Source: Haplodiscus bocki (lineage: Eukaryota). Taken from it: a stretch of DNA of 64,000 nucleotides. The position numbers were made by a program, and so were the translations under genes. Position 1 is the first letter of the stretch, and each line of letters starts with the position of its first letter. The stretch covers positions 66,092,001-66,156,000 of the forward strand of contig OZ296659.1 in the NCBI GenBank assembly GCA_965655095.1. The letters run 5' to 3'. Positions 9,769-55,929 of the stretch are shown here, piece after piece. A model generated the notes under the pieces. That model was not told the DNA's origin and made no database searches. It saw only the letters and a program-made list of their open reading frames with translations.

Positions 9769-9799
9769 GTTGGGCTAGGTAAGTTTGGTCAAAGCTTCC

Positions 9800-13110: not shown

Positions 13111-13488
13111 GTTTTCGTTTAGTTTTCCCAAGATATTGGGATGTTTACATAGAAGCTTCAACTTTCCATTGCAGAAAAAAAATTAACAGAGTGCTCCGCG
13201 TAGCATAATTTACATTCATAAAGTTCCCCTCAAAAAACATTAAAAAGTTTTCCGCAAGTAATTTTATTTACTTGTCTTGGGTTTGCAGCGGTTACTAGAC
13301 ATAGTAAATGGAACACATGAACAAATGAGACACAGACACACTCATTATGAGCTTGATGCTTATTCTTTTGTTCGGAGCAACTCAAACACTGTCATTGCAG
13401 AAAATACCGTACGATCGAGTTCGAATGCTGTAACTCATCCTGAAAAAATATGTTTTTTTTCCAAATTGCGTGCTTTTGTTAACTGAAA

Positions 13489-14985: not shown

Positions 14986-15352
14986 TGAACTTTTAAGAAC
15001 CGTGAACGTTTTTCAAACACAGTTGTTTCATCTTTTGGAAATGCTGTACCAAAATCCAACTTGAGTTCAGATGCCAGCGTACCAAAGTAATTGATTTTAT
15101 TATTCTTTTCCATATCATGAAAAAGGTTCCCTGACGATTTGCATGGATTCAATAGAGCTGCAGCATTTTCACTACTGGAAAGGTTTTGTAATGTTTCTCC
15201 TTTTCTCTGAAACGTACTTCAGACACGACCAAACGTGATAAATAATATTACATTTTTCGGGCGTTTGAGACCTGATAGGGTGCTCACTTTTGAGGAATGT
15301 TCCAAGTTTCATCAAATGTTTCAGCACCTTGTACATTTCTTGCAGAAGCCCA

Positions 15353-19938: not shown

Positions 19939-20875
19939 AGTAGTTACAATATTCGCATTTGAGGCCAAACGCGACGACGCACTACATCCAAAAAAGCTGC
20001 GGCCAGAGACATTATGAAAAAAAAATAAATTATGACGCAGACGTAAGATTTTAATAGCTATTTTACGTCAATTGGGGTTCACAGGAAATCACAAAATTTA
20101 TGCAAATGTATACTAAGTCAAAGAACGTGCACAGGATTGATGAAAAATCAGTAAAAAAAGACTTGACTTACCCGTTTTTTTCCACAGTATGGAAAAATCT
20201 TTAATAACAAAATTGTGGAAGCATTAGTAAAATGAATTTGCACGTCTATTTCTACGTCTATGCCAGATTGAAAAACTACCACTACCACATACCTATGTTT
20301 CATTTATTTTCTAGTTTCTCTCTCTTTATCTCGCCTCCCGCTTGTTGAATGATATATGAATGACAACGATAGATGTTGAGGCTTAGCTGGAGTGTTTGGA
20401 GTTCACTCCCCAATAACACGTATCCCCAGTCTTTCTCATACATTACCTGTGATTCTCCGAGAGAAACTGTCTTGCCATTACCTTGGTACAGATGGGGAAC
20501 TAGCGCCAGGAATGCTTGCACGGACTTGGAAGTTGGCAAGCAAGTTTTTTGCAAATTTTGTCAGGAAAATTGTTTTTACAAAACTTTGTTCTGAACTGTG
20601 CATCAAAGGGAATACACAGCAACAGTAAAAAATTGAAAATTTAAAAACTTCAAAGATAGTTACTATGCAAGATTGTTTTTACAAAAATTTTTCTGAATAT
20701 AATATAACAGCAGGCTCACAAAACCAAAAGTCACTCACGTAGAAAGTTGGTCACAGGAGTTTTTGTTGTTTTTATGAGTTAAAAATCTAGCAAAATATCT
20801 CGCATTTCTTTCTCCTCGTAAATTATAAATTTTAGATTTACCATTGTTTTTGAAATTTTTCGTCTTTTGAATATT
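19939..20875 (-). repeat. Polinton left TIR
   Basis: Reverse complement of 35720-36315, 43975-44918 and 53745-54675 (e.g. gtagtgcgtcgtcgcgt.tggcctcaaa.gcgaatattgtaactact). Confidence 0.92.
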
Positions 20876-21390
20876 CTCTTTTTATATAACCTTTTACTAG
20901 AACTAATTCCAAGATATACCTTCAGTGTCCTTCGAATAGTTACGTTTTCCAACAGAACTATTTTTTCTGTTTTATTTGAATTGAAATTTCTGGGTTTTTG
21001 AAACCGAGAAATGAACAGCAAAACAAAAGAGAAAAATAAACAAATGCAGAATGATGAAGGTGATGGCTAACATAATGATGAAGAAATAGTGCTGGAAAAA
21101 TAACGATTTTCAACAATCCCTCTGCTATATCTGACTGGAGATATTCAAAAAGATATTGGATTTCTTCAAAGAGCTGTTAAAATTAACCGTATGGCTATCG
21201 CCTGGATGTTTTTGATTTTGGTGATTAAAAAAATAGTGTTAGAAGCCACAACCCAATTATAAAGCTTTTAGATTTCCTGATAGCAGATGGAGAAAAAAAA
21301 AGCTTCGTCGGCAAATCAATAGTATCCTGAAATTGTTTCTCAAACCGACTATGGTTGTGAAAATCTTACACACATAGCTGTCAGGAAAAA

Positions 21391-21882
21391 CTAATTTTTA
21401 CAGATAACGCATTTTAACAAATCATAATCACTTTTATTTTGTTAACAATGTTCACAAAGACACTGATGACCACACAGTCGAAACACAAAAAAGCTAGGAT
21501 GTTCTAGACATATAACACATTTTTGATTAAAAATCCATACAACTTCGTTGCATCCATTGCAAAAGTCTGGTCTAAACAATGTTTCTTGTTGAGCCCACCA
21601 TTGTTCAAAGTGTCTTTGAGTTCTCCATATATCTTCATCCTCGTCGTTATCTCCGACTTCATCCGAGTAGTATAGATGGATTAGAAAATGCTCTACTTCA
21701 TTGCATACTTTTTCAACACATCTGAAAGCAAGATAATCAAACGGGTTCGGACTATCCACTGTGTTTTTTAATAAGGTTTCTTCTTCAATTTTATCGTTGT
21801 CAAAATTTTTACAACGGTCTGATAAGAAACATGTGTATTTTTTTCCGTAAGTTTCAGTTGTGGGACTCATGTTATTACCCAT
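21391..21882 (-). pseudogene. Polinton accessory RING-HC (C3HC4) protein with one internal stop
   Basis: MGNNMSPTT...KCVICLEHPSFFVFRLCGHQCLCEHC*QNKSDYDLLKCVICKN*; reading through the TAA at 21442-21444 in frame completes the RING. Confidence 0.85.
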
Positions 21883-21903
21883 GAGAGAAAGAAAATCCAC
21901 AAT

Positions 21904-22260
21904 TCAATCTTTTATATAATATTTTATAATCTCAAAACCCGAAAAGTAAACATGTTTTGATGACGTATGCTCTGGATTTGTAATACCTACTAAAAGAAAT
22001 GTTCCATCACATCCTACATCGACTTTAACTCCCAATTCGTCTGTAATTTTACAGAGTCGTCGTGATAAACCAATGGAAATCTTTTTAGATTGAAAACAAA
22101 GAAATGGTTCTTTAGTAAAAAAAAATAAACCAGCCAAGATAAAATTGTGCATACAAAATAAACAATAGAACGAATATGCTTGAAAATGTGTCAAATTTTT
22201 TGTCGCTTCGCTCAGCAAACATGTCAACTACGTCGACCGTATGCAAAACATGCATGTCAA
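21904..22260 (-). pseudogene. Small hypothetical Polinton ORF (probably frameshifted)
   Basis: Overlapping ORFs 21904-22227 and 22112-22348, co-oriented with the RING gene; no recognisable domain. Confidence 0.35.
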
Positions 22261-22399
22261 TTTTGTCGACACCACAAAGGAGCAGAATAAACACTTTAAA
22301 GTATTTTTTCTTTAAATTGTTTTTATTTAAAAACCTAACTGAGTGCAAAGCAATCTTTTTGTGTAAGTTAAAATTACCTTTTTTTCAAATAGTTTCCTA

Positions 22400-22760
22400 A
22401 AACTGGTAATTTTGACGCAAATTTAATACTACGACAATACAAACCAGATCTATTGTCCAGGTGTTTGGAGCATAAATCTATCAATCCCAAAAGAAAACAA
22501 GATCAAATAGAAAATGACTTAGGTTTTTCAAATCCTACTTTAGAACACTATAGACATGATATGTAAACGAAAAGTCCTTATAAATCAATTGTTCCCAAAA
22601 GAACCCAAAAGACCTCAAATGATGATTCCAAAACACCTCAAATGACCTCAAAGGAACCTGTGATTGATTATGCGAGAATAAAAGTGAAATGAAAAGTGGT
22701 AATTTATGTGACAACCATAGTCATGGAAGTGCTCTTATTGAACAAGCTTTCTCATAATAG
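22400..22760 (+). pseudogene. Small HTH-like protein relic
   Basis: GNFDANLILRQYKPDLL...KQDQIENDLGFSNPTLEHYRHDM resembles the QxxIAxxLGxSxxTL HTH pattern. Confidence 0.45.
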
Positions 22761-23299
22761 CACATTTTATGTCTGTTACAGGCGGAATGCGTAGAAATTT
22801 GAAAAAAAAGAATTCTAAGATACAAAATGAATTATCACATATCATTGAAAAATACAATGAAGAAACACTTGGGACGCAATTGAAAAGAAGACAGAACATT
22901 TTAATTCAAAGTAAAGTCTTTGAACAAGCAACAAATATAACGGGATACACTATTGAAAGTATGGATATAGAAAAAGAAATAAAAGATAATAAAAAAGAGT
23001 TTTTGGAAATTGAAATTGGATTACCATAATCTAAAATTATTGAGGAAAAGAAAAAATTAGGATTGAATGAAATATCAACGGAAAAATTAGTGATAGAATA
23101 TTGGATAGCTTTTATCAGTCGCTCATTATTGGCAAAAAAATCAAAAACGACAAAAGAACTAGAATTATTAAATATAGGTTTCGTTTTGATAATGATTTTT
23201 TTTATGAAACAATTTCGTTATTGTTTTCTATTTGCTTATCCATTTTTGTACTTTTTAGGTTGTTAAATTTTAGCTTATTTTTAATATGATAAATTATGC

Positions 23300-23700
23300 A
23301 GAAATGAATTTCATAGCAACGTCTCTGCAAAAAATGTAGTGCAACATTTGAATCTTAAGCAATTAGAACTCAAAGTAAACGATACTTTCGAAGAAGATGA
23401 GAGAATAACAAAAAATTTTGAACCTTCTAATGATGAACACGTTGTCAACCGGGCACATCAGAATGCAAAAAAATTCCAAAGTAGAGGGGGCCATATATCG
23501 TTTAAAGGAAAAGAATATAAAGGACAATTTTTGCATAACAATCAGAAACAGTCTGATGAAGAGTTTTTGATTGAAAGGGCTGTGAAATCAACTATAGAAA
23601 TGCTTTATGATAAAAGATTACATGATATTTATGATAGTGCGGATGAAGTATGAAAAGATTAAATACTGATTGAAATAGGCAGACCAAATTTGGAGGAACT
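23300..23700 (+). pseudogene. Hypothetical Polinton protein (possible fibre/stalk C-terminus)
   Basis: ORF 23339-23653; EPSNDEHVVNRAHQN loosely resembles the PxxDxDAVNKxYVD stalk motif. Confidence 0.3.
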
Positions 23701-24080
23701 AAATGATGATGTCATTCAATGATTTCAATCGAAAATTTAATTTCAAACATAAACCAACCTCAAAGATAAAAATCAAAAATCAATCAATCTGCAATGATAT
23801 AGACATATACTCAAGAGATGGCCCATTTGAGTCCGATTTTGGAAAGGTAACTTTGCACCCTACAAATAGAACGCACTTGGTTTTATGCATTAATTAAGAT
23901 TACTTCGATTCATATGGTTGTTCGCCTCCTTAAAAACTATCTTGGTTTATTTTCAGCGAAATGGGCATTGTTCATATTCTGACGACGAAATCCAGGGTCT
24001 AGATTCTTTTCGTGCAGTGTTTTGTTTTTACACTACTTGACAAATGTGTTAGGAACAGATTTTAAATCTGCTATCAAACG
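23700..24080 (+). pseudogene. Adenain-like cysteine (maturation) protease
   Basis: GKVTLHPTNRTHLVLCIN*DYFDSYGCSPP...EIQGLDSFRAVFC is a degenerate GxHW...YFDSYG...IQ...CG. Confidence 0.85.
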
Positions 24081-24289
24081 TGTTCGTAACAAGTAATTGA
24101 CGTTACGGAAAATCGCAAATTATAGTAGTGTTATATACGTCAACAGATATAAAGATGATCACTTGCATAGGGAACAAACGCCACCCATTTCAAAACAGAG
24201 GACAATAAACCAAACATTAAAAAGAGAAATGATTCCAATAAAAAACCTTCACAAAAGAATAAACATTTCTTTAACAACAATGTAGGACA

Positions 24290-25355
24290 AAGATTTAAAA
24301 TTTATATCTTATTAAGGGAGTCCTATTTTTATTTAAAAACATACTGATACACTAATTGAACAAACAAAGACAAAACCACAAGAAACATTTGAACTTGAGC
24401 TGAAAAAATTGAATTTCTTTTTCTTCTCTTTCTGAAGAAAGTAATTAGCTAACAGCAGTGACAAGTTTCGAAGCAACAAATTGCGTTTTTATTGAAACTG
24501 GTGAAAAAAAATCAAATTCAACACCAAACTTTTGGACCCCAAACGCTGTTGAAGAAGTAATTAACAAACTAAATGAAATATTATAGCTTAGATCTTAAAA
24601 TGATAATGAGTTACAAATTGAAGAAGTTAATGCAAAAGGGACTAGAACTGAAATAGAAAAGTGTGCATATAATTTAGCAGGTTTTGATCACTTTAAAAGT
24701 GATATATTTGCAGAAACAAGAGGAACAAAATATGATGCTCTCAAATTTGGTCGAAACATTGGCAAAAACCTTTGACAGACAGGTAGATATATTGGATATA
24801 AAGCATATTGCTTGATCAACTAATGCAAACACCCCACCACCAGGAAAATATGAAATTGGGGATCCTAACTTGATGTTATGGTCTTTACTTTTTGATGAGG
24901 TAAAAGTAAAAGTTATAGTTGATGATTTTAGACTATGATCAAATTTAACCACTGATAAAACAACAAAGTTTACTGAAAAATCCTTCTTCTATACCAAATT
25001 AGACTTTACTCCTTCCCCTTTAGGCCCTTCACGCAATATTGAAGACTTCGTTTAAAAAACACCAGCGTCATTTGAAAATAAAAAGCCCATTAATAAAACT
25101 GGAATTGATAAAGTTCAATTAAAAAGTAATTGCATCAATGGAAGCTTTGTCAATGGTGTTCGAGAACCTAATTTGAATAGTTTTGATCTTGATAAACCAC
25201 CCTGTCAGTAAATACACAAAGAACCAAAAATCAAACTTTTCAAAAAAGAATCTGTTTCGTCTCATATAACGTTTTATCTGGAAGATGATGATCACAAAGC
25301 GGTTGATTTTATTGGAGAAATGATAACCTTTGTTTGTCAACTAATCAAAGAATAA
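24290..25355 (+). pseudogene. Minor capsid (penton)-like protein, paralog 1
   Basis: C-terminus TGIDKVQLKSNCINGSFVNGVREPNLNSFDLDKPP...HITFYLEDDDHKAVDFIGEMITFVCQLIKE*, consistent with a Polinton mCP C-terminal jelly-roll; lies within the virion module. Confidence 0.65.
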
Positions 25356-25389
25356 GAAAAAAAGAAAAAAAGAACCTTGACATGGTTAG

Positions 25390-26450
25390 ACATGAAAATG
25401 AAGCAAAACATATTTTACTTTCAACAAACAAAAACTGTGAAACACTATTGAATACACACAGGAAACAACAAAAAACACTCGAATGCATACTTACCAAACC
25501 CGGGGGAAAATTTTCTCATTTGACTCATCTTTCAATCTTGAACTTGACTCTAAATCGATGATTGGATCAACAAGTTTATGAGCGTACAATTTTCTTTCAA
25601 AAAAAAACTAGGAAATAACAAATTTGAACTTTATAATGAAATTGTTAATGAGTTTTCATTCACAAAACTAAAAGATGAGCTTAAGGAGATCCTTGGTCTC
25701 TCAGATATTTCACCCAAGCAGCTACAGTTAAAACAGTAGGACCGCGTAATAATAATGCAACTAAAAACTTATCATCAGAAAAGAGACAGACTGTTGATTA
25801 ATATATGTTAATATTGTGTTATGCTTGATCTTCAATTCAAGATTCTGAAAGTTATCTTGGAATTTTAGTTTGTTTGGATAAAGATGATTTTCAGTTACTG
25901 TTAAAACTTTACTTTTCAAATTTTATCACATATGAAATGCCACCAGGCCTTTACTCAAATGAAGATATTCCAGAGGCCAGTCACCCAATGGGAGATCATG
26001 AGGGACCTTGCAAATTGAATATGATGATAGTAACGTGAAACAAAACCTATTTTTCCCGTTTTGGTGAAACTTTTAGAACCTTAAGGTTTGATGAAAAAGC
26101 TCACAGAATATTGGGGTCACACACCCACTAATGTTTTTCATGCTGATTCCTAGTTGTACAGACTAGAGAAAAAATTAAAAATTTAGGTACAATAGGTAAA
26201 ATTCATTTCAAATGTGATGTTTTGATGGCAGTGTAGTAAAAAGTATAAGACAAACAATACTAAACAATTTCGTTTTGGAAGAACCACTTGGGTATATAAT
26301 GTTTTTTGTGATCCTGAATTTATAAATTTTGAAAAAAAAATCAAATCTGTTTTGAGCAGTAAAACGTTTTGTTAAGAAAATGATGATCACAAAGAAGTTA
26401 ATTTAAATTGAAAAACGTTGACTTTTACTTTACATTTAGTAAAAATCTGA
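25390..26450 (+). pseudogene. Minor capsid (penton)-like protein, paralog 2
   Basis: GTIGKIHFKCDV/FDGSVVKSIRQTILNNFVLEEPLG...ENDDHKEVNLN*KTLTFTLHLVKI* aligns with paralog 1. Confidence 0.62.
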
Positions 26451-26529
26451 AACATTGAGAGTATAGAAAACACTTTCTTGGTTTTCAAGCCCAAAAAAGA
26501 AGTTTCCAAATAGTTAAAACTGATTCTTT

Positions 26530-26900
26530 TTGGGTTACAGGCAGGGATCTATCTGGTACTTTAATTCTTTATGAGGATATAACCTCTAAAGGTAGTAAAA
26601 TAATAAAAGGCGACTCTTCATTATGTATCAGAAAAAAAAACCTATGACTGTTAGTGTTAACGCTATAGCAGTGGAAAGTTTAGGTGACTATTTCAAGTCT
26701 CTTGGTAAAAAAGAACATAATGCTTCGAGAAAAATGGCAAAAAAAGTTTTAAAAACTAAAGGATGAGCATAGGGAATTGGAGCAAATGTTGGTAATGCAA
26801 TTGCATCTCGAAGCCCTAAAGCAGCTTTATCAAGTCTGCCAGAAGTGCTCAATTTCTGTCACATTGGAAAAGGGTTAAAGCTGGGGAATTTTGTATATTC
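26530..26900 (+). pseudogene. Small basic/amphipathic virion core-like protein
   Basis: ESLGDYFKSLGKKEHNASRKMAKKVLK...GIGANVGNAIASRSPKAALSSLPEV. Confidence 0.5.
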
Positions 26901-26929
26901 TCTAAAATTTCTTTCTTCTGTTCCAAGAT

Positions 26930-27470
26930 ATGACTGCACCTACATTACAGTTGTACCCATCTGCGCAACTAAAAAACAACATTGATATAGAACAGATAAT
27001 GAAACAGAAATTGAAATATGTGAATAGTTCCAATATCTTGATTAAAGTCATCAAGAAAATGATTACTTACTTCAAAGATTATCATCATAAATCAGAAAAG
27101 AAAAAGAAAAAAATACATATTGTTAAGTACAATAATAAAATCATTTTGATACATTTGTAATCATTGCCACTATATCTGTTTCCTCTACCTGGTCTCTCAC
27201 AGGCTTTGGTTCAAAACACTCCCAATATCAGCCAAGACAGCACGTGGATTAGCAGTTAGTAAAAAAGTAAAACATAGATAGTTATTCAAAAGATTCAAAA
27301 GTATAATAGGCATAAAAAAACTTATGGGAAAAAACAACGATCAAGTAAATTTATAAATTTATCGCTAGATTATTTTAAAAAAAGTTTGCAAGATAATCTA
27401 ATTGATAAAATTAAATACGAATCTCTATGTAATGTTTTGACTGAGTACGTTGTTGAAAGAAAAAAATAAT
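26930..27470 (+). pseudogene. Coiled-coil + hydrophobic-hairpin membrane protein relic
   Basis: LQLYPSAQL...KMITYFKD...SFDTFVIIATISVSSTWSLTGFG...TACGLAVS...SLQDNLIDKIKYESLCNVLTEY (joined across frameshifts). Confidence 0.5.
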
Positions 27471-27544
27471 CTTTTTTGAAACTGTACATAAAAAACTGGA
27501 AATTTTAGTACTTAAAAAAATCAACCTAGAACCTAGGATATAGA

Positions 27545-27845
27545 ACAAGAACGGTTCTGTCCTGTTAACATTAAAATGTTTGTTACGGAACTGTTCCGTT
27601 TATATTAGGACGACAACTGCTCTGTTTTCAGTAAGATGAGAGCTTTTGTCTTTACCACAAATGAGAACTGTTCTGCTATGCTTACAAAAAATGGAGAACT
27701 GTTCTGTTCTGTTTACCTTAAGATGAGAACTGTTATGTGTACATTACGATGAGAACTATCCTGCTTACATTAAATGAGTACTGTTCTGCTCACATTAAAA
27801 TAATAACTGTTCTGTTTACATTAAATTGATAACTGTTTTGTCTAA
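27545..27845 (+). repeat. ~26-30 bp tandem repeat (consensus ~ATGAGAACTGTTCTGTTTACATTAA), about 11 units
   Basis: Repeated aactgttctg...acattaa motif directly upstream of the ATPase. Confidence 0.88.
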
Positions 27846-27864
27846 TGAAAAAATCAAACGAGTG

Positions 27865-28620
27865 TTGAAAAATTTTGTTTTGTGTGTAAAATAAAAGCAG
27901 ATGAAAACAAGCACAAGAAAGATAGAGCTGTTTGCAGCAGCTGCTACATTAAGAAATACACAAAAACAACAGCTGACATCAAAAACAACTTCACACCTCC
28001 TGTGGAAAAGGAACTATTACTTCACACCAACAACGAAATAACTATATTATTAAAAGCAATGGAAACCTCATCATCAGAATTTCGAGTTGATGGAAATAAT
28101 ATCTAACGAGTTTTGTTCTACTTCGAAAACAAAAACCATTGTATAATTACAAAATCTTCAAATCAATATCATAATATCAAAGCTGAAACATCACATGAAA
28201 TTCACCCTTTAGAGACTAATGAAGACAACACTGTTGTTTTTGATGACATGTTGCTATCAAAACAAGCAAGCAATATTGATGTGTTTTTTTACAAGAGGGA
28301 GTCACAAAAATTTTAATAAATACTTTATATCTCAAACTTATTCTTACCTGTCAAAAAAAGTATTCGTAATTTTTTTAATAAAATTGTTTTGTTTAGGTTA
28401 ACACTAAGGGGTGTTTTACTACTATTATAATATATAGAAAGATTAGATAAGATTTTACAGGAATGGAACTAGCTATGTCGTAAGATTCTTGGAAATGAAT
28501 ATGAATTTTTACAGATAGACAGATTCGGTAAAAAACGAGAAGCTAACTATATTTTCAGGAATTGTAATAAAAGTAATTATAAAGATTGTACTCCCCAGGC
28601 GAAACATTTTGGAAGAACAT
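27865..28620 (+). pseudogene. A32/FtsK-like packaging ATPase with N-terminal Zn finger
   Basis: CFVCKIK...VCSSCY; degenerate Walker A (LIIRISS*WK*YL); Walker B VVFDDML; FFTRGSHKN...ISQTYSYL (cf. RGRHxN...SQxYFxLP). Confidence 0.85.
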
Positions 28621-28649
28621 GAGAAACATGCGCAATGAATTCATAGATT

Positions 28650-29487
28650 CTATGGGTGGTATTCAATTAAAAACAGAGTTGATTTGTAGAAATTAAACAA
28701 ATTAGTCTTGTCACAAAGACAAGATGAGGCTTTTTCATCAGGACAATTCATCATGAGGCAATGAAAAAAGTGTTTGAACAGGTTACTGAAACATTTAAAG
28801 ATGCCTCTGAAGATGTAACAAAAACCATGTTAGTAACTTCAGAAGAGAAAAACACCGCAGTAGCGAATTACAGCAACAAATTTTTAATCTAATGAAAGAC
28901 AAGGGTATATTACCATCTTATTTCCTGTCTCCTTTATCTAAAATCACTAACCCAGAAAATAATAGTCAATATAAACTAGTAAAAGATTTTGACTCGATTC
29001 GTGTCAATGATCTGTCAACAAGCAAAACAAAACCAGTTACTCCATATAACAATTTGCTAACCTTCCGGAATACAGACAAAAAATTTTGAAGTGGAAGGAG
29101 AATTTTTAAAATTCATGAAAACTGAAAAATACAATGTTGATCTTGCTAAATTATCGGATAAAAAACTAACGTCAGAGTTTGCGAAAGAAAGGCAGTTTTG
29201 ATGTTGAAGCTTAAGGTATTAAATGTACTAACTATAAACTTGTCATTAGGTTGCTCAAATTATTCGCAATACTGGCTTGTGCTTCTGGTGTTTCATTGTA
29301 TACGAGAATCTTTTTTTCCAATCTTGATAAACTATGTGATGGAATAAAAGTAGTACTACGAGAGAGACAGGCTGGAAATCCTTCAGATAAATTTAATGCT
29401 GAAATTGTCGCAACAGCGGATAAACTGTTAGATCGTAAGTGTATATCTGCGAAACAGCACAGATTTTTGCTACCTAAATTCAACTAA
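28650..29487 (+). pseudogene. Polinton hypothetical protein upstream of MCP
   Basis: ORFs 28892-29089 and 29251-29487 (LCDGIKVVLRERQAGNPSDKFNAEIVATADKLL), same strand, between ATPase and MCP. Confidence 0.5.
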
Positions 29488-29489
29488 GT

Positions 29490-30726
29490 TGAAAGTATGA
29501 AATAGAACGAAGAATCCTAAAGTGTGATTATTTAGGATTTTCACCTGCAGAGACATCTACAAGAAATACTGCTTATAGTCAAATATATATCAACATACTC
29601 GCGAAGATTCTGATGTTTCCTTGTTAAATAGTTATCTTGATTTAAAATTTGAAGTTATCGAAAAAACTGATGTTTCCATATGTGCAAATGGTAATGATAT
29701 AAATTGGTTTAATCTTGGCCCAATCGGTTTTTTTTTAGTAATTCTAGTTGGACAACATCCAGAGGTAAACAATTGGAAGCTTTTTGCCAAGCCCACCATG
29801 TTTCTTCAATGTGTAAACTATGACATCGAGTGGAGGCAATGTTGATTTATCTTTTTGATTCGTTCGGGAACGTATTAGGAGACAGTATGAGTTAACTAAT
29901 AAAAAAACATAAAAGATGAGTAACATGTAGGAATTAGTCTCGAAGACGTTTTTCGATTGGCCGAGGAAAAAGCTTGAAGCGGATTAAGTTAAATAATTAA
30001 CACCAACAAAAAATAAAGACGATGCCGTTCTTAACAAAGCTGATGCAATTGCTGATGTTGGAATGAAAATTGATAACATCCATTGGTGTGTACTTCATTA
30101 TACATACACACCTTCCATTCCTGAACAAGGGTAAATAAGTCAACAAGTTTTAAAAAATCACCCAGAGAGCACCGATAAATTGAACGATCTATTTTAAAGA
30201 AAAAAGTAATCAAGCAGAGTCTTTGGAGTTGCGATTTAGGTAGCCATGAAAGTATGAATGTTGCTATATGGATAATTGTACGATTTCAACAAAGAGGTGG
30301 ACGAGATTAGCAAAACCTGAACAATGACGCCTTTTATAGATTGCCAATTACTTGTGCCCAAGGCATAAAAGGTACAGAAAAAAACCCTAAAACTGGTACT
30401 TTTAAAAACTATAACAATGATGATTATAGTCAGGATTATGAACTGATTAAAAAAGTTTTTAGAGCTCTCACAAAAGATGACATCCTTCAACCAGATATAT
30501 CAGATCACGATTTTAGATCTTCAAATGTCGGGGCCGATGATAATGGTTAAAAATCATATGTTTTCGATTTACGATATCAGGGAACTTTTACAGCTGTCAA
30601 CGCAAATAATGTAGAATTTGAATTTGATGGAGTTGTTCCAAAAGATAAAAACGGATATGCTCTAGTACAAACAAATATATTGGTTAGTGTGAGTAGTGAT
30701 GGGCATTTGCATTTTGATGTAATTTG
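29490..30726 (+). pseudogene. Major capsid protein (double jelly-roll type)
   Basis: ~410 codons: SQIYINILAK/EDSDVSLLNSYLDLKFEV...WIIVRFQQR...LPITCAQGIKGTEKNP...YVFDLRYQ...VEFEFDG...GYALVQTNILVSVSSDG; size, motifs and position fit a Polinton MCP. Confidence 0.78.
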
Positions 30727-30729
30727 AAG

Positions 30730-31580
30730 TCTAAGAAACTTTGATCCCTCGTGGATTTATGTTTGAATTCTTCATCACATCTTCACGTTTTTTCTTTCTT
30801 AACTCTGTCTTTTTCAATAAGGCTCTATTATATTATTCGAGATGTTGATCGATTTTGTAGCTTAGTATTGTAACGTTAACAGTTTCTGTACTTTCATACA
30901 GTTCATTAAACCAGTTAGCTGTATCCGATTTTCAAGACGTTTTCTTTTTATTGGTTCTTTTGACCAGGATGTGAATTTTAAAATTTCGTTTTCTTTTCTT
31001 TCGTTTTTCCAAAAAATTTTGGTCAACATATCCTTCTTCTTTCTGAAGATGCATGGATTGGGGTTAATTTAGTAGAAAAAGGTATTCTATTCTTAAATTG
31101 TCTCGTTACTGTGGGTAAATTATCCACCCAAATACCATCACACCTTTCTAAAATAGGCTTTTTAGGTTGGTCTCTAAAAATACGGTTGAGCCTTTCAGCA
31201 AAAACTGCTCCTAAAGATGTAATTGTAGAACAACACATAATGTTATTGTTATTTAGGAGATTAGTAAAAGTTTTGTCGACAAACTCGGATCCGTCACCGC
31301 TTCCATTCGAATTTGCTCTTCTCTTCGTGGACTTGAGAATGTTTTCTAAAATGTTTGTTATTGTTTGAGCATTTTTATTTTTTAAAGGCACTGTCCATCC
31401 AAACTTGCTGAAGTTATCCAACACAACTGAAACTTATCTTTATCCTCTTTTATTTTCAGGACCATATTACCTCAAATCTGACATATGTGAACTCCAAGTA
31501 TCAGCAATAAGATAAACATTAGTTTCGTTGGTGCTGTAGTTCTTCGCTGATCCTTTGGAGTCTATTTCGTTTAAAAAAAA
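30730..31580 (-). pseudogene. Polinton retroviral-like (rve) integrase
   Basis: DTWSSHMSDL...VVLDNFSKFGWTVPLKNKNAQTI...GDGSEF...AVFAERLNRIFRD...STKLTPIHAS. Confidence 0.92.
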
Positions 31581-31779
31581 ACAATTGACTGGGCCAATTG
31601 CTAGCTGCGCCATAGAATCAACTGTTGCTCGAGTCAATTAGCTAACCTAAAATTTTGCAGGGTGAATTTTGGGAACCTTGTTGGTTCCTATTTAATCGTC
31701 CACAAGTATTATCAGTTAAAAAACATTTTTGCTGTCATATTAAGTAGAGGAAGAAACACATGCAGGATCCGGTCACACT

Positions 31780-34700
31780 TTGCATAGCGAACAATTTATA
31801 ATAAATGCGATCTTCGTAATAAACGATGCTTTGAGGATTATAACAAGAATCATCTAAAATCAAAAACTCATATTAAAACTCTTAATGGGTTTAATAATAT
31901 TTGAAAGTATTGTGATAGTTGCAAAGATGATATGAACAATTCAAATTGAAAGAAACAAATCAAAAAACTTGAAGGAAAATTGGCGGACGAAAGTTGACTC
32001 ATTTTTCTTCCAAAATTTTTAATCTGTCATTTATTTGAACAAAAATTTCAACTAATTAATTGAAATGCATATCATTATCTTTTTGTTGTTGTAACATTTT
32101 ATGCTTTTTTTCATAATATGTCTTTCGTTAGTTTGATATTTTATTTTTATTAAGATAGTAACAATTTGAAACTCTTTTAGTGATACAGGTTTTACAATCT
32201 GCTTTTCCTAAAGATATTTGATAAAAATTTCAGTTCTACAATTAGTACAAAGTTTACTCTCCATTTAATTGATATATTTCTCCTGAAAATATTTTTGCTT
32301 TCAATAAGTTCCTCCTCAATATAGGGAGACGAAAAATAGAGACAGCCGCAGATGTGATAAATGTAATTTTGATGTTCATATAGCATCCTTTGCGAAACTT
32401 TTCACAATTAAGAAGCCTGGAGAAAACTTACACTTTATCCACTCAAACGTTATTAATGAAAAAAGCAAAACCAAACCAAAAAAAATTTTTGAACCTAAAC
32501 CTTCAAAACAAATAGCAGGAGGAAGTTTTAAAATAGATGATAAACAATTAAACAAAGATTTAACTGAAGACACGAATAATCTTTACTATTTTGCTCACGG
32601 AGTATGAAAAGCCGGGTTTAATAATGAAGTAGATGGCCATCATACTATTCAAAGAAAGTTTAAATTAACTATTTGACCAAAATTTTTAGAAATTTAAGGA
32701 ACACTTGTCATTTACATAGTGAAAGAGATGACTAATATTTATGCAAGATTATTAAAATTTTACAATTATAAATATCAAACAGTGTTTCTGGCAAGATAGG
32801 ACGATCAAGATGAAAGCGATCAGGTATTAGATGAATTTGAAAATACAAAAACCTAATGACTAATAAAAATTTAACGGAATCTGATGGTGATAAAATTGAT
32901 GCTGGATATCATATAAAAAAACAACTCATTCAGAATCAGGAGTCAAAAGATAGTGTTTGAGATTTGAATAATTTAATTCAATGACATTATTTTTCGATAA
33001 CACTATTGAATTAAACGGATCAAGTTGTATAAAAGTTCCATAAAGAAATTCAACTATATTGAATTTTGAAAATGGTGATAATTTTTGTTTCCTTTGGTCA
33101 ATATTAGCTCATCCACATCCTTGTAAAATTAATCGTTTTAAAAGAGTGTCGAAAATTAAACGAAAATTTGATAAGTTAAACATTCAAAGATTCGATTTTA
33201 CTAAGGGTTTCAAATGCAGTGATGGTAATGAATTTAATAATTTAAATGAATAATCTTTGAACATCTTTGAATTAGGTTCCTGTCATGATCAAAAGGATTG
33301 GACACCTAAATTAATTCCTATTGAAAATAGTTAAAACGATTTTGACAGATTTGTCGACTTAATGATATATAGAAATCATTATATTCTAATCAAAATGTTA
33401 CATGTAGTTTTAAGTAATTATGACACTAAGTTTAAATGTAGACGAAGTTTGAGTTAGTATTCCCGTCTGAATATTATATTAAAACATAACCAGAGATGTG
33501 AACAACAGGAAAAACTGGCTATTAGAACATCAAATGATTTTATTTACTTTTGGAAGAAACGCGTTAATAAGAAAATCTTATCTTTCATGGTATATGCACA
33601 TATTGAAGCTGATAATGAAATTGATTATCCTAGTAAAGCAAATTAAACACTTAACATTTATAAACAGAATCCAGTTTGTAATGGTTGATATAAAGTATCT
33701 GAATTAAACGATGTTTTGCTGAGCAGTTTTTTTGAATCTCCTCTAGCATATGATGATGTTTACTGGTTTGTGGATGAAGTAATAAAAAATGAAAATACAT
33801 AGAAGATCTTCTTTCAAAACACTAAAAAACGCACTATAATGATTGGAGAAGATCAACATTTTTAGGGACAAATTTTTACGTGTCAAATTTTTCGAAAAGA
33901 AAAAACATTCTAATAAGGTTAGAGGTCGTTTTCACTTAACAGGTAAATATACAGGACCAGCTCATCAGAAAGGTACTAATAACGTTTTATTTTATTTCAT
34001 TCCGCTTAGCTAATTTGAGTATTCATGATTGTCATCTATTGTTTGAAAAATCAGTTGATGGAAGGAAAAGTTTGAGAATAAAAATTCCTGATTAAAGGAT
34101 TTATGTAAATAAAAAATTTACATATCTTGAGAATACTTCAAAAAATCGAAGTTTATCAAAAATCAGTTAGCAACTTAGAAAAAGAAGAATTCTTCAAAAA
34201 AGTATAAAACAACTGTCGTATCGATGAAGAGAAAGAACGATAAAAAGCAATTATTAAATTCGTTAATATTCAACATGGAGAAAAGGTAACGAAATTATAC
34301 TAAAGTGATTTTATTTTACTTCCATGTCTTTTTGAGAAAATTTTGAACGTATCAATTTTTGAATTTGATGTCAATCCTCGTTTTTGTGTAAACTAACCTG
34401 ATTCTTTTACTTGACTTTTTTGATTGAAATAATTTGGTATAAACTTACAGACACTTCAAGCTATAGAAACAAATTTGTTGTTGGAGAATAATATACGAGG
34501 AGGAATTTCATCAGTATTGGGTGATAGATATAAGAAGTCAGGTGGAAAAATTTTTTATAAAGAGATGCTACCATGTTATATGGTTGGGCCATGAGCGAAT
34601 CCCTACCATATGATGAAATTAAGTTTGATAAAAAAGTTAATTTAGAAGATATTTTAAATACTCTTGATGATTCGTGTATTGGTTGTTTCGTTGAGACTGA

Positions 34701-35690
34701 TTTACGATATCCAGATGAACTATAGGAAGAATCTAAGAATTCTCCAATTTGTCCAGAGAACAAAGTTAGTCCTCAAAAAAACTTTGGTGATTACATGAAC
34801 GAGAAGAAACCGAATAATAACACACAAATTAAGAAATTAATTTGTGATTTGACTGACAAAAAGAATTACTTAATTCATCATAGGATGTTGAAGTTTTATA
34901 GAAGACACGGAAAAATAGTTGATGAAGTTCCTCAGACAAATTATTTTAAACGGAAAAAATTGGTTGGAAAAAGATATAAATTTCAATACTCAAAAAAGAA
35001 AACAACAAAAAAATGATTTTGAAAAGGACTTATAATAATTACTAAAAAACGCTTTTTATGGGAAGACATTGGAAAAAGTTAGAAATAGACTAAAAACGAA
35101 CACTATTTAAAAAAAACAATTTTAAAGAAACTATCAATCCTTAATCAAAACTAAACATCAATGGAACCCATGAATCTTATACAGATTCTCATAGTAACAC
35201 ATTTGCACATAATGAAGTTCTTATGGATGAGGCAATTTAATTAGGATTCACCGTATTGCAATTGAGTAAATTGTTCATGTATGGAACATATTTTGATGCT
35301 ATTCCACCATCTTTTGGAGAGAAAAACACAGTGTCATTACATTGGTACAGATGCTTTTGTATCAAGTGTATATTCTGGAAACAGAATCAAAGACTTACAA
35401 ACTCTTGAATATTTTTTTGACTTGAGCAATTAAAAAAAATGATGATTTTCATAGTTTTAAAAACAACAAAGTGATCGTTAAAGTCGAAACAGAAACTCCT
35501 GAGAACGTTTTTGTAGATGAATTTTTATGCTTAAGAATTAAAGCATGTTCATTTATAGTGGAAGTGATAGTAAAAAAATTGAACAAATTTTCTAAATCTC
35601 ACTCGGAATTGTTGAATTCGATGAGAATTAAAATTCTTTTTTTTGAATGAGATTATCAAAAAGAACGTGATAAATATAGCTTGAAATTGA
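31780..35690 (+). pseudogene. Protein-primed family B DNA polymerase (N-terminal Zn-finger/TP region, EndoVII-like insert)
   Basis: NHLKSKTH; CFLWSILAH; YAHIEAD (ExoI); VRGRFHLTGKYTGPAH; NIRGGISS; DATMLYGWAMSESLPY (motif A); LLKNAFYGKT (motif B); HYIGTDAF (motif C). Confidence 0.93.
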
Positions 35691-35719
35691 AATTAAAAAA
35701 TGTTTATGAAAGTTAGAAA

Positions 35720-36315
35720 AATTTGAAAAACTAGAAACATCGAAAACAAAAATCGATCTAAAAACTATGTTTCACGAGGGGAAAGAACTTCGAGATTTTA
35801 TGATAGAATTTTAACTCATAAAAACAACAAAAACTCCCGTGACCAACTTTCTACGTGAGTGACTATTGGTTCTGTCAGCCTGCTGTTATAAGATATTCAG
35901 AAAAACTTTTTGTGAAAACGATCTTGCATAGTAAACATCTTTATAAATTTTGAGTTTTCAATTTTTTTATTGATCCGGTGAGTTCCCATTGATGCTAACT
36001 TCGGAACAAAATTTTGTAAGAATAACTTTCCCTTATAAAAAATTTAAAAAACATCGCCGGCCAAATTCCAAGACCATGCAAGCCTTCCTAGCGATAGTTC
36101 CCCATCTGTAACTTGGAACACTTGTGTACGTCCCTTGATTTAGTATACTTTTGCATAAATTTTGCAATTTCTTGTGAACCCCCTTGACGTAAAATGTTTA
36201 TTAAAATTTTACGTCTGCCTCCTATTTTATTCTTCATTATATTTCTTTCGGCAGCAGTTTTATTGGACGTAGTGCGTCGTCGCGTCTGGCCTCAAAAGCG
36301 AATATTGTAACTACT
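35720..36315 (+). repeat. Polinton right TIR (internal ~350-370 bp deletion near 36110)
   Basis: Inverted match to 19939-20875; lacks the segment present at ~44370-44725. Confidence 0.9.
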
Positions 36316-42084: not shown

Positions 42085-44918
42085 CCACTGGATGAAGAAA
42101 ACAAAATGAAAAAAAGTTGAATTTTTGTTTAAAAACACAAGTAAACGTATTATATTCAACTGAAGAAGATGAACAACATTGGGGACATAAAAATACTTGT
42201 CAGTTTTTTTGAAAAAAAATTCTCGTAAGGTTAGAAATCATTGTCACTTAACAGGAAAAAATAGAGGAACAGCTCATCAAAAATGTAATTTTAACGTTAT
42301 ACAGAAACAAAGTACTTTTTTTCATCTGTCTTTGATAATTTATGTGTTTATGATTGTCATCTTTTCTTTAAACAGTCTGTTGATGATAGGAAAGATTCTG
42401 TAGGTTTTGATATTTTTTCCAACACAAACGAAGCATACACATCAGTAACGTAGAGTTGCATTAGGTTTATTGATAATTATCGATTGCTATCAAGCAGTTT
42501 AGAATACTTAGTTGAAACGCATTTTGATAACAAATATAAAAAACATTAAAAAGTTTGATAGAAGAAATTGCTGGAGATGGTATTATTTTGAATATTGTTT
42601 TTGAAAAAGAATCAATAATTAGTACAGATGGAACTATTGAAGATTTTAATAAAAAGATTATCAAGATGTAATTGAAAAATTGAAAGAGGTTTCAAATTTA
42701 TACAAATTTGAAAATGATCTGAGAAGTTTGAGAATAAAATTCCCTGATAAAGGGGAACATATCAACAAGAAATTAGCAGATCTTTAAGAAAACTTCAAAA
42801 GTATCGGAGATTATCACAAACCTGTTAGCAATTTAGAAAAAGAAGAAATCTTCAGTGAATTAAGAAACAACTGTCGTAGTGATGAAGAAATAGAACGGAC
42901 AAAAGCAGTTTTTATATTATTTTTTTAGTTATTATTCAAGATGGAGAAAAGGTAACAAAAATACACTTAAAAAGAGATGTTATTTTCCTTACATGTGTTT
43001 TTGAGAAGTTTATAAAAGTATCAGAAATCCAACTTGAATTCAATCCTTTCAATTGTGTAAGCTCACCTGGCTTACCTTAATATGTTGATTGAAAAATAGT
43101 GGTATAAACTTACAAACACTTCGAAGTAAAGAAACACTTTTGTTGTTAGAGAATAGTATACGAGTGGGAATTTCATCAGTATTGGTTGATAGATATGTGA
43201 GATCAGATAAAAAACTTATTACAAAGAGATGCTACGATGTAATAGGGTTGAACTAAGAACGAATCCCTACCTTATGATGAAATTAAAAATGATAAAAATG
43301 TTAATTTAGAAGATATTAAAAACTCCTGATGATTCGTTTATTGGTTCCATCGTTGAAGTTGTTTTAAGAAATCCAGATGAATTAAAGGAAGAAACTGAGA
43401 ACTTTCCTTTTTGTCCTGAGGAAAAAGTTAGTCCGCAAGATAATTTTAGTGATTATATGAACGAGAAGAAACCGAATAAAAACACACAAACTACGGAGTG
43501 TTTTCGTATTAATTATAATTTCCAGTAACATTATCAAAGACTTACAAACTCTCAATGATTTTTTTGACCTGAGCAATTTAAAAAAAATCATGATTTTTAA
43601 AGTTTTAGAAACGAGAAAGCGATTGGTAAACTCGAAAGAGAAACTCCTAAGAAGTTTCTGTAGATGATATTTCTTGTTTAAGAAGTAGAGCATATTCAAT
43701 TAAAAGTGGAAGTGATAGTAAAAAGAAACTAAAAGTTTCTCTAAATCTCATTCGGGAAAGCTAAATTTGATGAAAGTGAAAGTTGTGTATTTAGATGAGA
43801 TTACCAAAAGGAATGGGATATTTATATTATCGAATCAATTAATCATGAAATGTCCCTTCAAAGAGTACGTGAATCTACAATATCAGCTTTTACTGACAAA
43901 CGATGTTATGTAATTGGATTTGAAAGTATAGCTTGGAAGTGGAAACTAATAAAAGGTTAAAAAAGCAAAAAAAAACATAAATTTGAAAAAACTAGAAACT
44001 TCAAAAAACAAAATAAAATCTAAAAACCATGTTTTACGGGGGAAAAGAAATTCGAGATATTATGATACAAATTTAACTCATAATAACAACAAAAACTCCC
44101 GTGACCAACTTTCTACGTGAGTGACTTTTGGTTCTGTCAGCCTGCTGTTATATGTTATTCAGAAAATTTTATATGAAAACGATCTTGCATAGTAAATATC
44201 TTTATAGTTTTTGAGTTTTCAAGTTTTTACTGTTCCTGTGTATTCCTCCTGATGCACACTTCTGAACAAAATTTTGTAAAAATAACTTTTCTCAACAAGT
44301 TTTTCAAAGACTTCGCCTGCCAAATTTCAAGTCCATGCAAGCACTCCTGGCGTTAGTGACCCATCTGTACCAAGTTAATGGCAAGACAGTTCCTCTCGGA
44401 AAATCACACTATTGCAATGTATGACACATGCTGGGGATACGTGTTAGTAAGGAGTGAACCCCAGACACTCCAGCTGAGCCTTAACTTCTATCGTTGTCAT
44501 TCATGTATCATTCAACAAGCTGGAGGCGAGTTGAAGAGGTAGAAACTAGAATATAAATAAAACATAAGTATGTGGTAGTGTCAATATTCCAATCTCGCAT
44601 AGACGTAGAAATACACGTGCAAATTCATTTTACCATTGCTTCCACAGTATTGTTATCGAAGAATTTTCCATAATCTGGAAAAAAACGGGTCAGTTAGGTT
44701 TTTTTAGTGATATTTCATCATTCCTTTGTACGTCCATTGATTTAGTATACTTTTGCATACTTTTTGTAATTTCCTGTGTACCCCCATTGACGTAAAATGT
44801 TTATTAAAATTTTACGACTGCGTCCTATTAAGTTTTTTTTTATAATTCTTTCGGCAGCAGTTTTATTGGACGTAGTGCGTCGTCGCGTCTGGCCTCAAAA
44901 GCGAATATTGTAACTACT
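42085..44918 (+). mobile_element. Polinton fragment D: pPolB 3' half + complete right TIR
   Basis: KVRNHCHLTGKNRGTAHQKCN; homologous to 33770-36315; ends ACTACT at 44913-44918; ~0.5-kb deletion near 43495 removes motif B. Confidence 0.92.
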
Positions 44919-54400: not shown

Positions 54401-54675
54401 TTACCATTGCCTCCACAGTATTGATTTGAGGATTTTTTCATACTCTGGAGAAAAACGGGTAAGTTAAGTATTTTTTAATGATTTTGCGTCATTCATGTGT
54501 ACCTCTATTGATTTAGTATGTATTGCAAAAATTTTATAAATTCCCCTGTACCCCCATTAACGTAAAAAATGTAATAAAATTTTACAACTGCATCTTTTTC
54601 AATATTTTTTGGCAGCATTTTCCTGGACGTAGTGCATCGTCGCTTCTGGCCTCAAAAGCGATTATTGTAACTACT
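51491..54675 (+). mobile_element. Polinton fragment D': pPolB 3' half + complete right TIR
   Basis: KVRDPCHLTDKYRGTAH; HYIDTDAF (motif C); same left junction (ccactggatgaag) as D; ends ACTACT at 54670-54675. Confidence 0.92.
53894..54310 (+). CDS. 138-aa ORF inside the Polinton TIR (hypothetical)
   Basis: Open in this copy; the same peptide (SKSVQAxLALVPHLYQ...GYVLLGSE...LQLSLNxYRC...IIQQAGGEI) is in the left TIR ORF 20300-20554. Confidence 0.35.
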   Translation: MTIGSVSMLLYYIQKNFLKKQSCTVNIFKALEFSIFFYCSCVLPLMHTSEQSFVKINFPKKKVCRPSSKSVQALLALVPHLYQVMARQFLSDNHTILMYDKHSGYVLLGSEPPTLQLSLNFYRCQSCIIQQAGGEIER

Positions 54676-55900: not shown

Positions 55901-55929
55901 CAAGAAAGATATCGTTAAAATCTTCATTT

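Follow-up and report, generated by a model that had tools for sequence, protein, structure and literature searches.

What kind of element lies behind the open reading frame fragments at positions 19939..36315 of the window (the whole 64,000-nucleotide stretch of Haplodiscus bocki DNA that was analysed), and which of its parts goes with the ends that bound it? The interval had been read in a first-pass annotation as an endogenous Polinton/adintovirus-like genome, and it is indeed a full-length, decayed Polinton (Maverick). This copy is by itself routine. The more interesting result lies in its family, which has about 3,000 exact terminal-motif matches in the H. bocki genome and which combines one capsid/integrase backbone with four classes of protein-primed DNA polymerase B (pPolB), here called A1, A2, B1 and B2.

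The Polinton copy in the window

The AGTAGT-ended TIRs had been recognized correctly: AGTAGT starts at 19939 and its inverted counterpart ends at 36315. The genome is also hidden by decay, as had been proposed, with stops and/or frame changes in every gene. When the window frames were read with X and compared to Pfam, the RING and rve domains alone matched, both below the cut-off; the MCP, protease, ATPase and pPolB are too decayed for Pfam. Therefore, the genes were identified via relatives, by tblastn of open frames from less decayed copies in the same genome, with E-values from 1e-17 to 1e-102 for the matches. The frames of these other copies map to the window in the gene order and orientation previously suggested:

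19939..20924, plus strand: left TIR, about 1 kb, beginning AGTAGT; the class-A1 tip, a candidate replication origin, makes up its outermost ~45 bp
21397..22194, minus strand: two-domain gene with a C3HC4 RING finger at its end, broken; 39% identity to a relative, 2 stops
22399..22656, plus strand: HTH protein gene, broken, 144 aa in relatives; E 1e-17, with HTH_24 above cut-off in a relative
23270..23704, plus strand: conserved 144-aa gene, broken; E 1e-28
23706..24075, plus strand: maturation protease gene, taken to be adenain-like, broken; homology to relatives, with His, Asp and Cys motifs in their alignment
24325..25346, plus strand: mCP1 (penton), broken; homology, and the model of a relative
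25373..26447, plus strand: mCP2, paralogue of mCP1, broken; homology, with about 40% identity to mCP1 in relatives
26501..26895, plus strand: basic protein gene, 132-139 aa, broken; E 1e-29
26930..27478, plus strand: 177-aa gene, broken, encoding a possible membrane protein with a hydrophobic, Gly-rich stretch; homology to relatives
27870..28610, plus strand: A32-type packaging ATPase gene, broken; E 1e-26 in the window, with PF04665 above cut-off in a relative
28660..29484, plus strand: conserved 283-aa gene, broken; E 1e-41
29481..30724, plus strand: MCP gene, broken, 417 aa in relatives; window homology E 4e-86
30758..31577, minus strand: rve integrase (INT) gene, broken, 283 aa in relatives; homology to relatives
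32002..32229, minus strand: small accessory gene, a remnant, lying between those for INT and pPolB; E 4e-6
32332..35686, plus strand: pPolB of class A1, broken; matches A1 in pieces, 36-61% identity
35672..36315, minus strand: right TIR with an internal deletion; its A1-type tip ends at 36315
42089..44918, plus strand: second copy of the right end (3' part of pPolB and TIR), tandem duplicate
51494..54675, plus strand: third copy of the right end, tandem duplicate

A RING gene and a separate minus-strand ORF had been annotated; the RING finger and the strand hold, but both probably belong to a single gene with two domains, an arrangement found in two relatives. The RING domain (PF13920) scores E 4e-5 on the window ORF, below cut-off, and is above cut-off in two relatives; the integrase domain (PF00665) scores E 7e-6 on the window read with X, again below cut-off, and is above it in a relative. 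Two functional labels are not upheld: the 144-aa gene at 23270..23704, called stalk-like, is without a Pfam family at cut-off, and the basic-protein gene at 26501..26895, called core-like, finds nothing at that cut-off, with a sub-threshold match to Cupiennin (E 0.47) in a relative. The protease, which we take to belong to the adenain-like family, is without a Pfam match or, with the protease profile as the query, a PDB sequence match, and the His/Asp/Cys motifs are conserved among its relatives.

The genome had also been called complete, which is borne out for gene content but not for a single insertion, given that no 6-bp TSD is recognizable: the left flank CAAGGA and the right flank TGCGGA agree at 3 of 6 bases. 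For this copy, it is somewhat unlikely that the left and right halves are two different old insertions that were joined later, as opposed to one insertion with a decayed TSD. A 3/6 flank match has a probability of 0.06 at 82% per-site identity and of 0.15 by chance, which favors a later join, as does the tandem triplication of the right end, in which a unit of pPolB from about residue 380, TIR and flank has two extra copies ending at 44918 and 54675. The intact gene order and the A1 tips at both ends, which fit the A1 polymerase, argue instead for one insertion, as does the left TIR, whose identity to the three right copies (79-84%) is similar to that among those three. The right TIR is missing about 350 bp relative to the left and differs from it by 21% across 641 aligned columns.

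Capsid proteins and database searches

A double jelly-roll MCP, on which the first-pass annotation had staked its reading, is found in the predicted fold of a relative. The best matches of this model (pLDDT 75.5, pTM 0.80) are double jelly-roll capsid proteins, with 321 residues aligned to a PBCV-1 capsid chain (Z 23.8, rmsd 3.2), and the MCP of a relative matches Pfam PF21738 above cut-off. The mCP1 of a relative is modeled as a single jelly-roll penton with a helical insertion (pLDDT 65.7, pTM 0.44), for which 129 residues align with a PBCV-1 capsid chain (Z 12.4, rmsd 2.8) and 229 with the mavirus penton (Z 11.9, rmsd 9.8). The roughly 40% identity of mCP2 to mCP1 suggests that it is a penton as well.

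Sequence searches of the PDB with the MCP and two polymerases gave nothing useful, viral_contigs had no MCP match with single-protein patterns, and phage records had no match for the B1 polymerase. Homologue searches returned almost exclusively unnamed ENA proteins, and a cluster look-up of 10 listed MCP relatives gave one name, 'hypothetical protein'.

Four polymerase classes on one backbone

The A1 and A2 polymerases are 39% identical and B1 and B2 are 34-44% identical, with almost no similarity between A and B, for which a single weak local match was found (E 5e-4). PF03175 is above cut-off in one A1 and one B1 relative (58 and 77 bits vs 25.8), and another A1 frame does not reach the cut-off. 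The A1 pPolB of relatives carries an Endonuclease VII-like insertion. Class B is presumably like the Alpha and class A like the Beta lineage of adintovirus PolB (Polinton groups 2 and 1, respectively), as judged from Pfam scores. A shared N-terminal domain in A and B polymerases is unsupported, as 0 of 120 homologues of the A1 N-terminus matched a B reference. A motif search in the accessible part of the supplement of PMC8502044 gave no match.

The 38 copies chosen by capsid region comprise 16 of class A1, 6 of A2, 5 of B1 and 11 of B2; two locus pairs without MCP or INT (L077-L080) are excluded from all counts. The first-pass annotation had proposed a search for intact copies with 6-bp TSDs, and a perfect TSD is present in 23 of the 28 copies that have both ends.

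The capsid/integrase backbone reassorts freely relative to polymerase class. The MCP tree has 19 class changes vs 19.1 when shuffled (P 0.61) and the INT tree 18 vs 18.5 (P 0.47), so that both are random for class, and the protease-region tree has 17 vs 18.6 (P 0.21). Linkage to class is borderline for the mCP1 region (14 vs 16.7 changes, P 0.04) and for the region of the 137/177-aa genes (16 vs 19.1, P 0.053). On the MCP tree, a B clade is rejected by the AU test (p 0.0008), and one A1 and one B2 copy are 99.05% identical across 4,093 bp, a stretch that stops just before pPolB. The trees thus rule out four subfamilies that each descend from one ancient polymerase swap.

Gene content was scanned in 45 younger copies, via TAAATG-started ORFs of at least 90 aa in at least three copies, with the prospective loci described below entering without the element middle. 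Of the 27 resulting ORF clusters, the three polymerase clusters alone occur in every copy of one class and in no copy of the others. Non-homologous accessory genes cross classes, including ones that adjoin pPolB or lie at the left end; a 202-aa gene, for example, is found in 4/15 A1, 4/11 A2, 2/11 B1 and 3/8 B2 copies.

Terminal tips follow the polymerase

When four motifs were scanned on all loci, the outer ~30-45 bp of the TIRs matched the polymerase class in 64 of 65 ends, obtained from 37 of the 38 copies, a count that is partly circular because the motifs were drawn from 23 of these copies. In the 15 copies outside the motif definition, 18 of 19 ends match. The sole mismatch is in copy L041/L042, where the A2 polymerase has an A2 tip on its own side and the opposite end bears an A1 tip; this copy is without a TSD and so may be a post-insertion chimera, yet it is counted as a mismatch. 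Three distinct 6-bp end motifs are tied to class, with AGTAGT belonging to A1, and AATAAT and AGTATA also occurring. Perfect 6-bp TSDs accompany each of the four types of tip, with a single pool of integrases.

A prospective set of 20 elements was chosen by end motif alone (10 with the A2 tip and 10 with the B1 tip). The predicted class was found in 19 of 20 and another class in 0 of 20, with one element lacking a polymerase in the 16 kb fetched; the A2 tip led to an A2 polymerase in 10/10 and the B1 tip to a B1 polymerase in 9/10. A perfect TSD flanks 19 of the 20. In one B1-tip element, the polymerase is B1-like (56%) and the backbone is a different one (protease 31%, mCP 27%).

The TIR interiors are common to all polymerase classes, still leaning to their own class above the shuffled mean. 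For 52 ends, the best match is of the same class in 46/50 at a depth of 46-120 bp, in 36/52 at 151-400 and in 25/52 at 401-800, compared with about 12.5 when shuffled; at the tip, it is 52/52, which is circular by construction. Excluded from this analysis were copy L053/L054, which has an inverted end, elements with two polymerases or none, and copies in which no tip was detected on the side of the polymerase. Two minor variants of the A1 tip were considered as markers of A1 polymerase sub-lineages; in none of four segments do they track the polymerase tree (P 0.42-0.49), so that specificity, if real, is coarse. A literature search that covered few subscription papers returned no report of a Polinton end motif tied to polymerase type, nor one of TAAATG in Polintons.

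A model for the coupling and its alternatives

Protein-primed terminal replication of Polintons is, to our knowledge, an assumption carried over from phi29 and adenovirus, not a demonstrated fact. Polinton pPolBs are described as having a fused terminal-protein domain (PMC11161782), and the phi29 polymerase/TP heterodimer is described as specifically recognizing a minimal 12-bp terminal origin (PMC3351185). The sequences suggest, with good probability, that the decayed element in the window belongs to a high-copy family in which four pPolB classes share a backbone and in which the tips match class, likely as origins primed solely by the cognate polymerase and its fused terminal protein. The co-segregation of tip and polymerase is what makes an origin function of the tips likely.

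Free linear genomes would recombine often across the homologous backbone. A recombinant that joins a polymerase to a foreign tip would be unable to start replication at that end, and matched genomes alone would multiply and integrate. Alternatively, the far end may be overwritten from the polymerase-side end via TIR pairing. Adenovirus ITR repair is a precedent for overwriting one end from the other. The integrase would likely take its cue from the terminal protein or the common TIR interior, not from the tip sequence, and the TAAATG starts may suggest that the setting is a poxvirus-like helper's factory. With its A1 polymerase and A1 tips, the window copy falls in an older MCP grade, so that the coupling is old. 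A fuller picture is tentative, if possible: four mutually orthogonal pairs of polymerase/terminal protein and origin, with origins of a few dozen bases, would compete and recombine on one virion chassis in the factory of an unseen poxvirus-like helper, and a single integrase pool would insert all of them, guided by the terminal protein and not by end sequence.

Coupling could also arise without functional specificity if patch-like gene conversion, which needs homology on both sides, shuffles the backbone while the non-homologous polymerases and tips are inherited as haplotypes. Such neutral inheritance is improbable, although cross-class homology is least in the tips and polymerases, the TIR interior keeps a partial class signal and no crossover was directly observed. 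Other non-homologous markers, such as the 202-aa gene, do cross classes, a tract of 4 kb or more has visibly been exchanged, and a B1 tip is paired with a B1-like polymerase even where the backbone is another one. There is a very slim chance that the tip is read by another factor, either the integrase or a small class-linked gene, and that the polymerase follows by linkage. Integrases act on ends, and a 152-aa ORF is limited to B1 (8/11) and a 124-aa ORF to A1 (4/15), but the INT tree is random for class while perfect 6-bp TSDs occur with all four tip types, and among TAAATG-started ORFs of at least 90 aa in at least three copies no second gene is universal in one class and absent from the others.

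There is barely any chance that the mosaics arose as chimeras in the assembly or by ectopic recombination among chromosomal copies after insertion. The family is present in high copy, the window includes a tandem duplication, and 5 of the 28 both-ended copies, including the sole tip mismatch, are without a perfect TSD. A single join of unrelated loci would, however, lose matched TSDs and tips, and perfect 6-bp TSDs with matched tips are found in the other 23 both-ended copies and in 19/20 prospective elements; the TSD data therefore speak against chimeras.

With tips as cognate origins, the candidate origin is narrowed to a few dozen bases and four cognate polymerase-tip pairs can be named. 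The tips change along with the polymerase, suggesting how an element survives polymerase swaps.

Comparison with known systems

The 'end module' hypothesis for PLVs and polisuviruses (Barth et al., PMC11296320; bioRxiv 10.64898/2026.10.13.758929), in the portions of these sources available, holds that TIRs are both origin and integration substrate and change along with the replicase, and that ends are shared between pPolB and a DDE integrase by a common DNA specificity or an adapter; how they do so is posed there as an open either-or (bioRxiv 10.64898/2026.10.13.758929). In H. bocki, the tip tracks pPolB and not INT over dozens of recombinant copies, which favors an adapter or shared-interior model of integration. 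That work, as far as it could be consulted, is a cross-lineage comparison and a hypothesis, whereas here a within-genome population separates the parts.

The nematode pPolB1/pPolB2 Polintons, as presented in the sections available of Jeong et al. (bioRxiv 10.1101/2023.08.22.554363), likewise have very distant polymerases on a conserved backbone in one genome, with a nuclease-like insertion in one polymerase type, as here. Polymerase swapping is already known from nematodes, and, relative to that account, what differs here is the coupling of tip to polymerase class. Nematode TIRs are, by description, highly conserved across polymerase types, whereas here the interior is shared and the outer ~30-45 bp are class-specific. 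Polymerase replacement in nematodes is read in that account as rare horizontal transfer, in contrast to the four classes and repeated recent reassortment found here.

Vertebrate Mavericks (Barreat and Katzourakis, PMC8097293), to the extent of the text available, share the (AGT)2 end motif with class A1 and the window copy, and resemble the family in 6-bp TSDs, element size and a predominance of decayed fossil loci. Their layout of two convergent modules is described with a gene order that differs from that of the window copy. The end motifs given there are (AGT)2, (AG)3 and an AC type, with AATAAT and AGTATA absent from those given and motif not linked in that text to polymerase type.

Polintons/adintoviruses, as covered in the portion available of Starrett et al. 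(bioRxiv 10.1101/697771), have in common with the present family pPolB, an rve integrase, an A32/FtsK-type ATPase, a double jelly-roll MCP and a single jelly-roll penton, probably also an adenain-like protease, together with TIRs, 6-bp TSDs and a length of 16-19 kb. Chimeras between Alpha and Beta PolB lineages and virion operons are reported there as well. Relative to the adintoviruses so described, the present family differs in that four polymerase classes coexist and reassort in one genome, with end motifs tied to class, and in its two tandem paralogous pentons of about 360 aa.

Identity of the window element

The decayed Polinton (Maverick) starts with AGTAGT at 19939 and ends with the inverted motif at 36315, as in the first-pass annotation, which had described terminal inverted repeats (TIRs) ended by AGTAGT around a genome hidden by decay. 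The TIRs are about 1 kb long, with the right copy short by about 350 bp, and differ in 21% of 641 aligned columns. The decay was also borne out, as every gene carries stops or frame changes. Only 37 stop-to-stop ORFs of at least 70 aa are found in the element region (maximum 153 aa), and Pfam searches with 19 window frames or ORFs (X at stops where needed) gave no domain other than RING finger and rve, neither of which reached the cut-off. The flanks, CAAGGA at left and TGCGGA at right, agree at three of six bases, a match with a probability of 0.15 by chance and 0.06 from a decayed target site duplication (TSD), such that chance is slightly likelier.

The genes were identified via relatives in the 1.5-Gb host genome. 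With 5 kb of the element's morphogenesis genes as query, 13,029 first-look candidates were retrieved, and the matches in the 40 that were scored are mostly 66-75% identical. Forty locus pairs were fetched around morphogenesis-region matches and one TIR match, and the major capsid protein (MCP) and rve integrase (INT) are present in 38. The open frames of the relatives map onto the window in the gene order that had been stitched together from its fragments. Pfam places RING, HTH_24, Pox_A32, DJR-like_dom, rve and DNA_pol_B_2 above cut-off in the relatives, and gives no assignment for their 144-, 137-, 177- and 283-aa genes. The double jelly-roll (DJR) fold proposed for the MCP is supported by the predicted structure from a relative (pLDDT 75.5), which matches DJR capsid proteins with a best Z of 23.8 (rmsd 3.2, 321 residues), in agreement with its viral matches in Foldseek. 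The model of the minor capsid protein mCP1 is weaker (pLDDT 65.7); its six best matches are capsid or penton chains of DJR viruses (Z 8.7-12.4), including the mavirus penton, and mCP1 is about 40% identical to mCP2. The element is a Polinton by all tested hallmarks except its own TSD and the putative protease, a label taken from visible His, Asp and Cys motifs. On the MCP tree it lies on a long branch among older copies, with the nearest sampled copy 77% identical. Taken alone, this locus is a routine fossil, and its class has been described before.

Four polymerase classes share a backbone

The polymerase slot is occupied by four classes of pPolB, of which A1 is the type in the window. A1 and A2, each with an Endonuclease VII-like segment, are 39% identical; identity between B1 and B2 is 34-44%, and A and B polymerases share a single weak local match. 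In each of the six capsid-selected A2 copies (such as L013/L014, the two sides of one copy), the A2 gene faces the element interior, the reverse of the orientation in A1, B1 and B2.

Polymerase classes, terminus starts, copies among the 38, and exact genome-wide tip matches
A1: AGTAGT; 16 copies; 782 matches
A2: AGTATA; 6 copies; 78 matches
B1: AATAAT; 5 copies; 1,715 matches
B2: AATAAT; 11 copies; 471 matches

Class changes on backbone DNA trees are about as many as after shuffling (MCP, 19 versus 19.1; INT, 18 versus 18.5; protease region, 17 versus 18.6). Linkage to class is borderline for mCP1 (P 0.04) and for the 137/177-aa genes (P 0.053). The AU test rejects a grouping of the B copies as one clade in the MCP tree (p 0.0008). 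One A1/B2 pair, each copy with its own perfect TSD, is 99.05% identical across 4,093 bp, stopping just before pPolB, and 89-93% identical across most of the left half. Therefore, as judged from trees and alignments, the polymerase classes have been reassorted on the backbone repeatedly and in part recently.

Tips track polymerase class

Class-specific sequence covers roughly the outer 30-45 bp of the TIR, here called the tip (to about 100 bp in B2), and the TIR interior is common to the classes. Scanning all loci for the four motifs, which were derived from 23 of the 38 copies, found 65 ends in 37 copies, and 64 match the polymerase class. In the 15 copies outside the derivation, 18 of 19 ends match; the sole mismatch is the far end of a TSD-less copy. 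The annotation had proposed a search for intact copies with 6-bp TSDs; a perfect 6-bp TSD is present in 23 of 28 two-ended copies. Within A1, no agreement with the polymerase tree is seen for two minor tip variants.

In an independent test, the tip served as the sole selection criterion: 10 elements were taken from a list of 22 full-length A2 pairs, and a further 10 were the first full-length pairs on the B1 list. An A2 polymerase is present in every one of the 10 elements with A2 tips (80-92% identity, versus 40-43% to A1), and nine B1-tip elements carry a B1 polymerase (56-86%, versus 39-41% to B2); in the tenth, the polymerase is absent from the fetched ends. None of the 20 carries another class, and 19 have perfect TSDs. 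When ORFs of 45 younger copies were sorted into 27 clusters, polymerases alone occurred in every copy of one class and in no copy of any other.

With increasing distance from the terminus on the polymerase side, a copy of the same class gives the best match for 46/50 ends at 46-120 bp, 36/52 at 151-400 bp, 25/52 at 401-800 bp and 30/51 at 801-1200 bp (about 12.5 after shuffling). This indicates that the DNA between polymerase and tip has been exchanged across classes and the tip has not. In four TSD-flanked copies (L025/L026, L027/L028, L029/L030 and L017/L018), a good match between the TIRs is confined to the outer 44-365 bp, which would suit ends derived from two different parents that agree in the tip region only.

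Reversed-motif controls gave no genome-wide matches for any tip. The approximately 3,000 exact tip ends correspond to roughly 1,500 elements if paired, with part of the B1 tips on other backbones. Thousands of Polinton copies per genome are already known in corals (PMC11131425).

A candidate mechanism

Tip and polymerase co-segregate, independent of INT and MCP, and clean TSDs occur with every tip type. A terminal-protein domain is found at the N-terminus of Polinton pPolBs (PMC11161782). The polymerase/terminal protein pair of phi29 is specific for a minimal origin at the genome end, and it starts synthesis with a sliding-back step on a short repeat (PMC3351185). The tips are probably class-specific replication origins, primed only by the cognate polymerase. 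The main rival, considered unlikely, is neutral lock-in, by which patchy conversion would keep tip and polymerase together. If priming by each class is restricted to its own tip, recombinants would survive only with both ends matching, and such matching could arise by selection or by TIR pairing that copies one end onto the other. Repair of adenovirus ITRs, for which a literature search brought up no source, would be an analogue of the latter. Since the integrase accepts all tips, it would likely be guided by the terminal protein or the shared TIR interior rather than by the tip.

The site of recombination might, speculatively, be a poxvirus-like helper factory. Across L001-L040 there are 284 ORFs of at least 130 aa. 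In 156 of them the starting ATG immediately follows an in-frame stop, and the junction reads TAAATG, the poxvirus late-promoter motif, in 155; these starts offer a hint only.

Polymerase replacement in Polintons is already known. It was described with conserved TIRs in nematodes (Jeong et al., bioRxiv 10.1101/2023.08.22.554363), and Alpha/Beta chimeras were reported by Starrett et al. (bioRxiv 10.1101/697771). Joint turnover of TIRs and replicase has been proposed (Barth et al., PMC11296320), and Barth et al. (bioRxiv 10.64898/2026.10.13.758929) ask whether pPolB and integrase are specific for the same end sequence or are linked through an adapter. Several end motifs are known in vertebrate Mavericks, with no tie to polymerase type in the portion of text examined (PMC8097293). 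Coupling of tip and polymerase in a recombining family was not found in the literature searched, which consisted of openly available papers and preprint main texts. The novelty is in the family, not the locus, and with this family Polinton origin specificity becomes directly testable.

Other elements

Three further TSD- or tip-bearing elements differ in content. L093/L094, flanked by a TSD and with A2 tips, has two inverted A2 polymerase copies, and integrase, protease and mCP were not found in 8 kb from each end. In the ends of L111/L112 (TSD-flanked, B1 tips), polymerase, integrase, protease and mCP were not detected. L101/L102 combines B1 tips and a B1-like polymerase with another backbone, in which identity is 31% for the protease and 27% for mCP.

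In the window, the right end of the element and about 6 kb of flank occur as three tandem copies (33771-54798), with the pPolB part 77-82% alike and a 4.8-kb segment 96-99% identical between units 1 and 2, which points either to a duplication that is old but was recently converted or to one introduced by the assembly. A young repeat at about 37675-38880 (+), found again near 46280-47980, has copies elsewhere that are 85-98% identical and often come in twos on one strand, with a spacing of about 11-12.7 kb; given this pairing, it is probably a solo LTR. A 5.2-kb stretch at 9791-14994, between inverted repeats of about 1.1 kb (78% identity) and with weak homology to an ORF of L038, is probably another old TIR element. 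A Polinton-derived 3.95-kb tandem array (89-93% identity) fills 54795-64000 and contains an integrase frame:

55899-56510, same strand as the pPolB remnant, rve integrase frame (PF00665, E 4e-7)

The pPolB N-terminal remnant of this array is co-oriented with the integrase frame, whereas in the main family the two are divergent.
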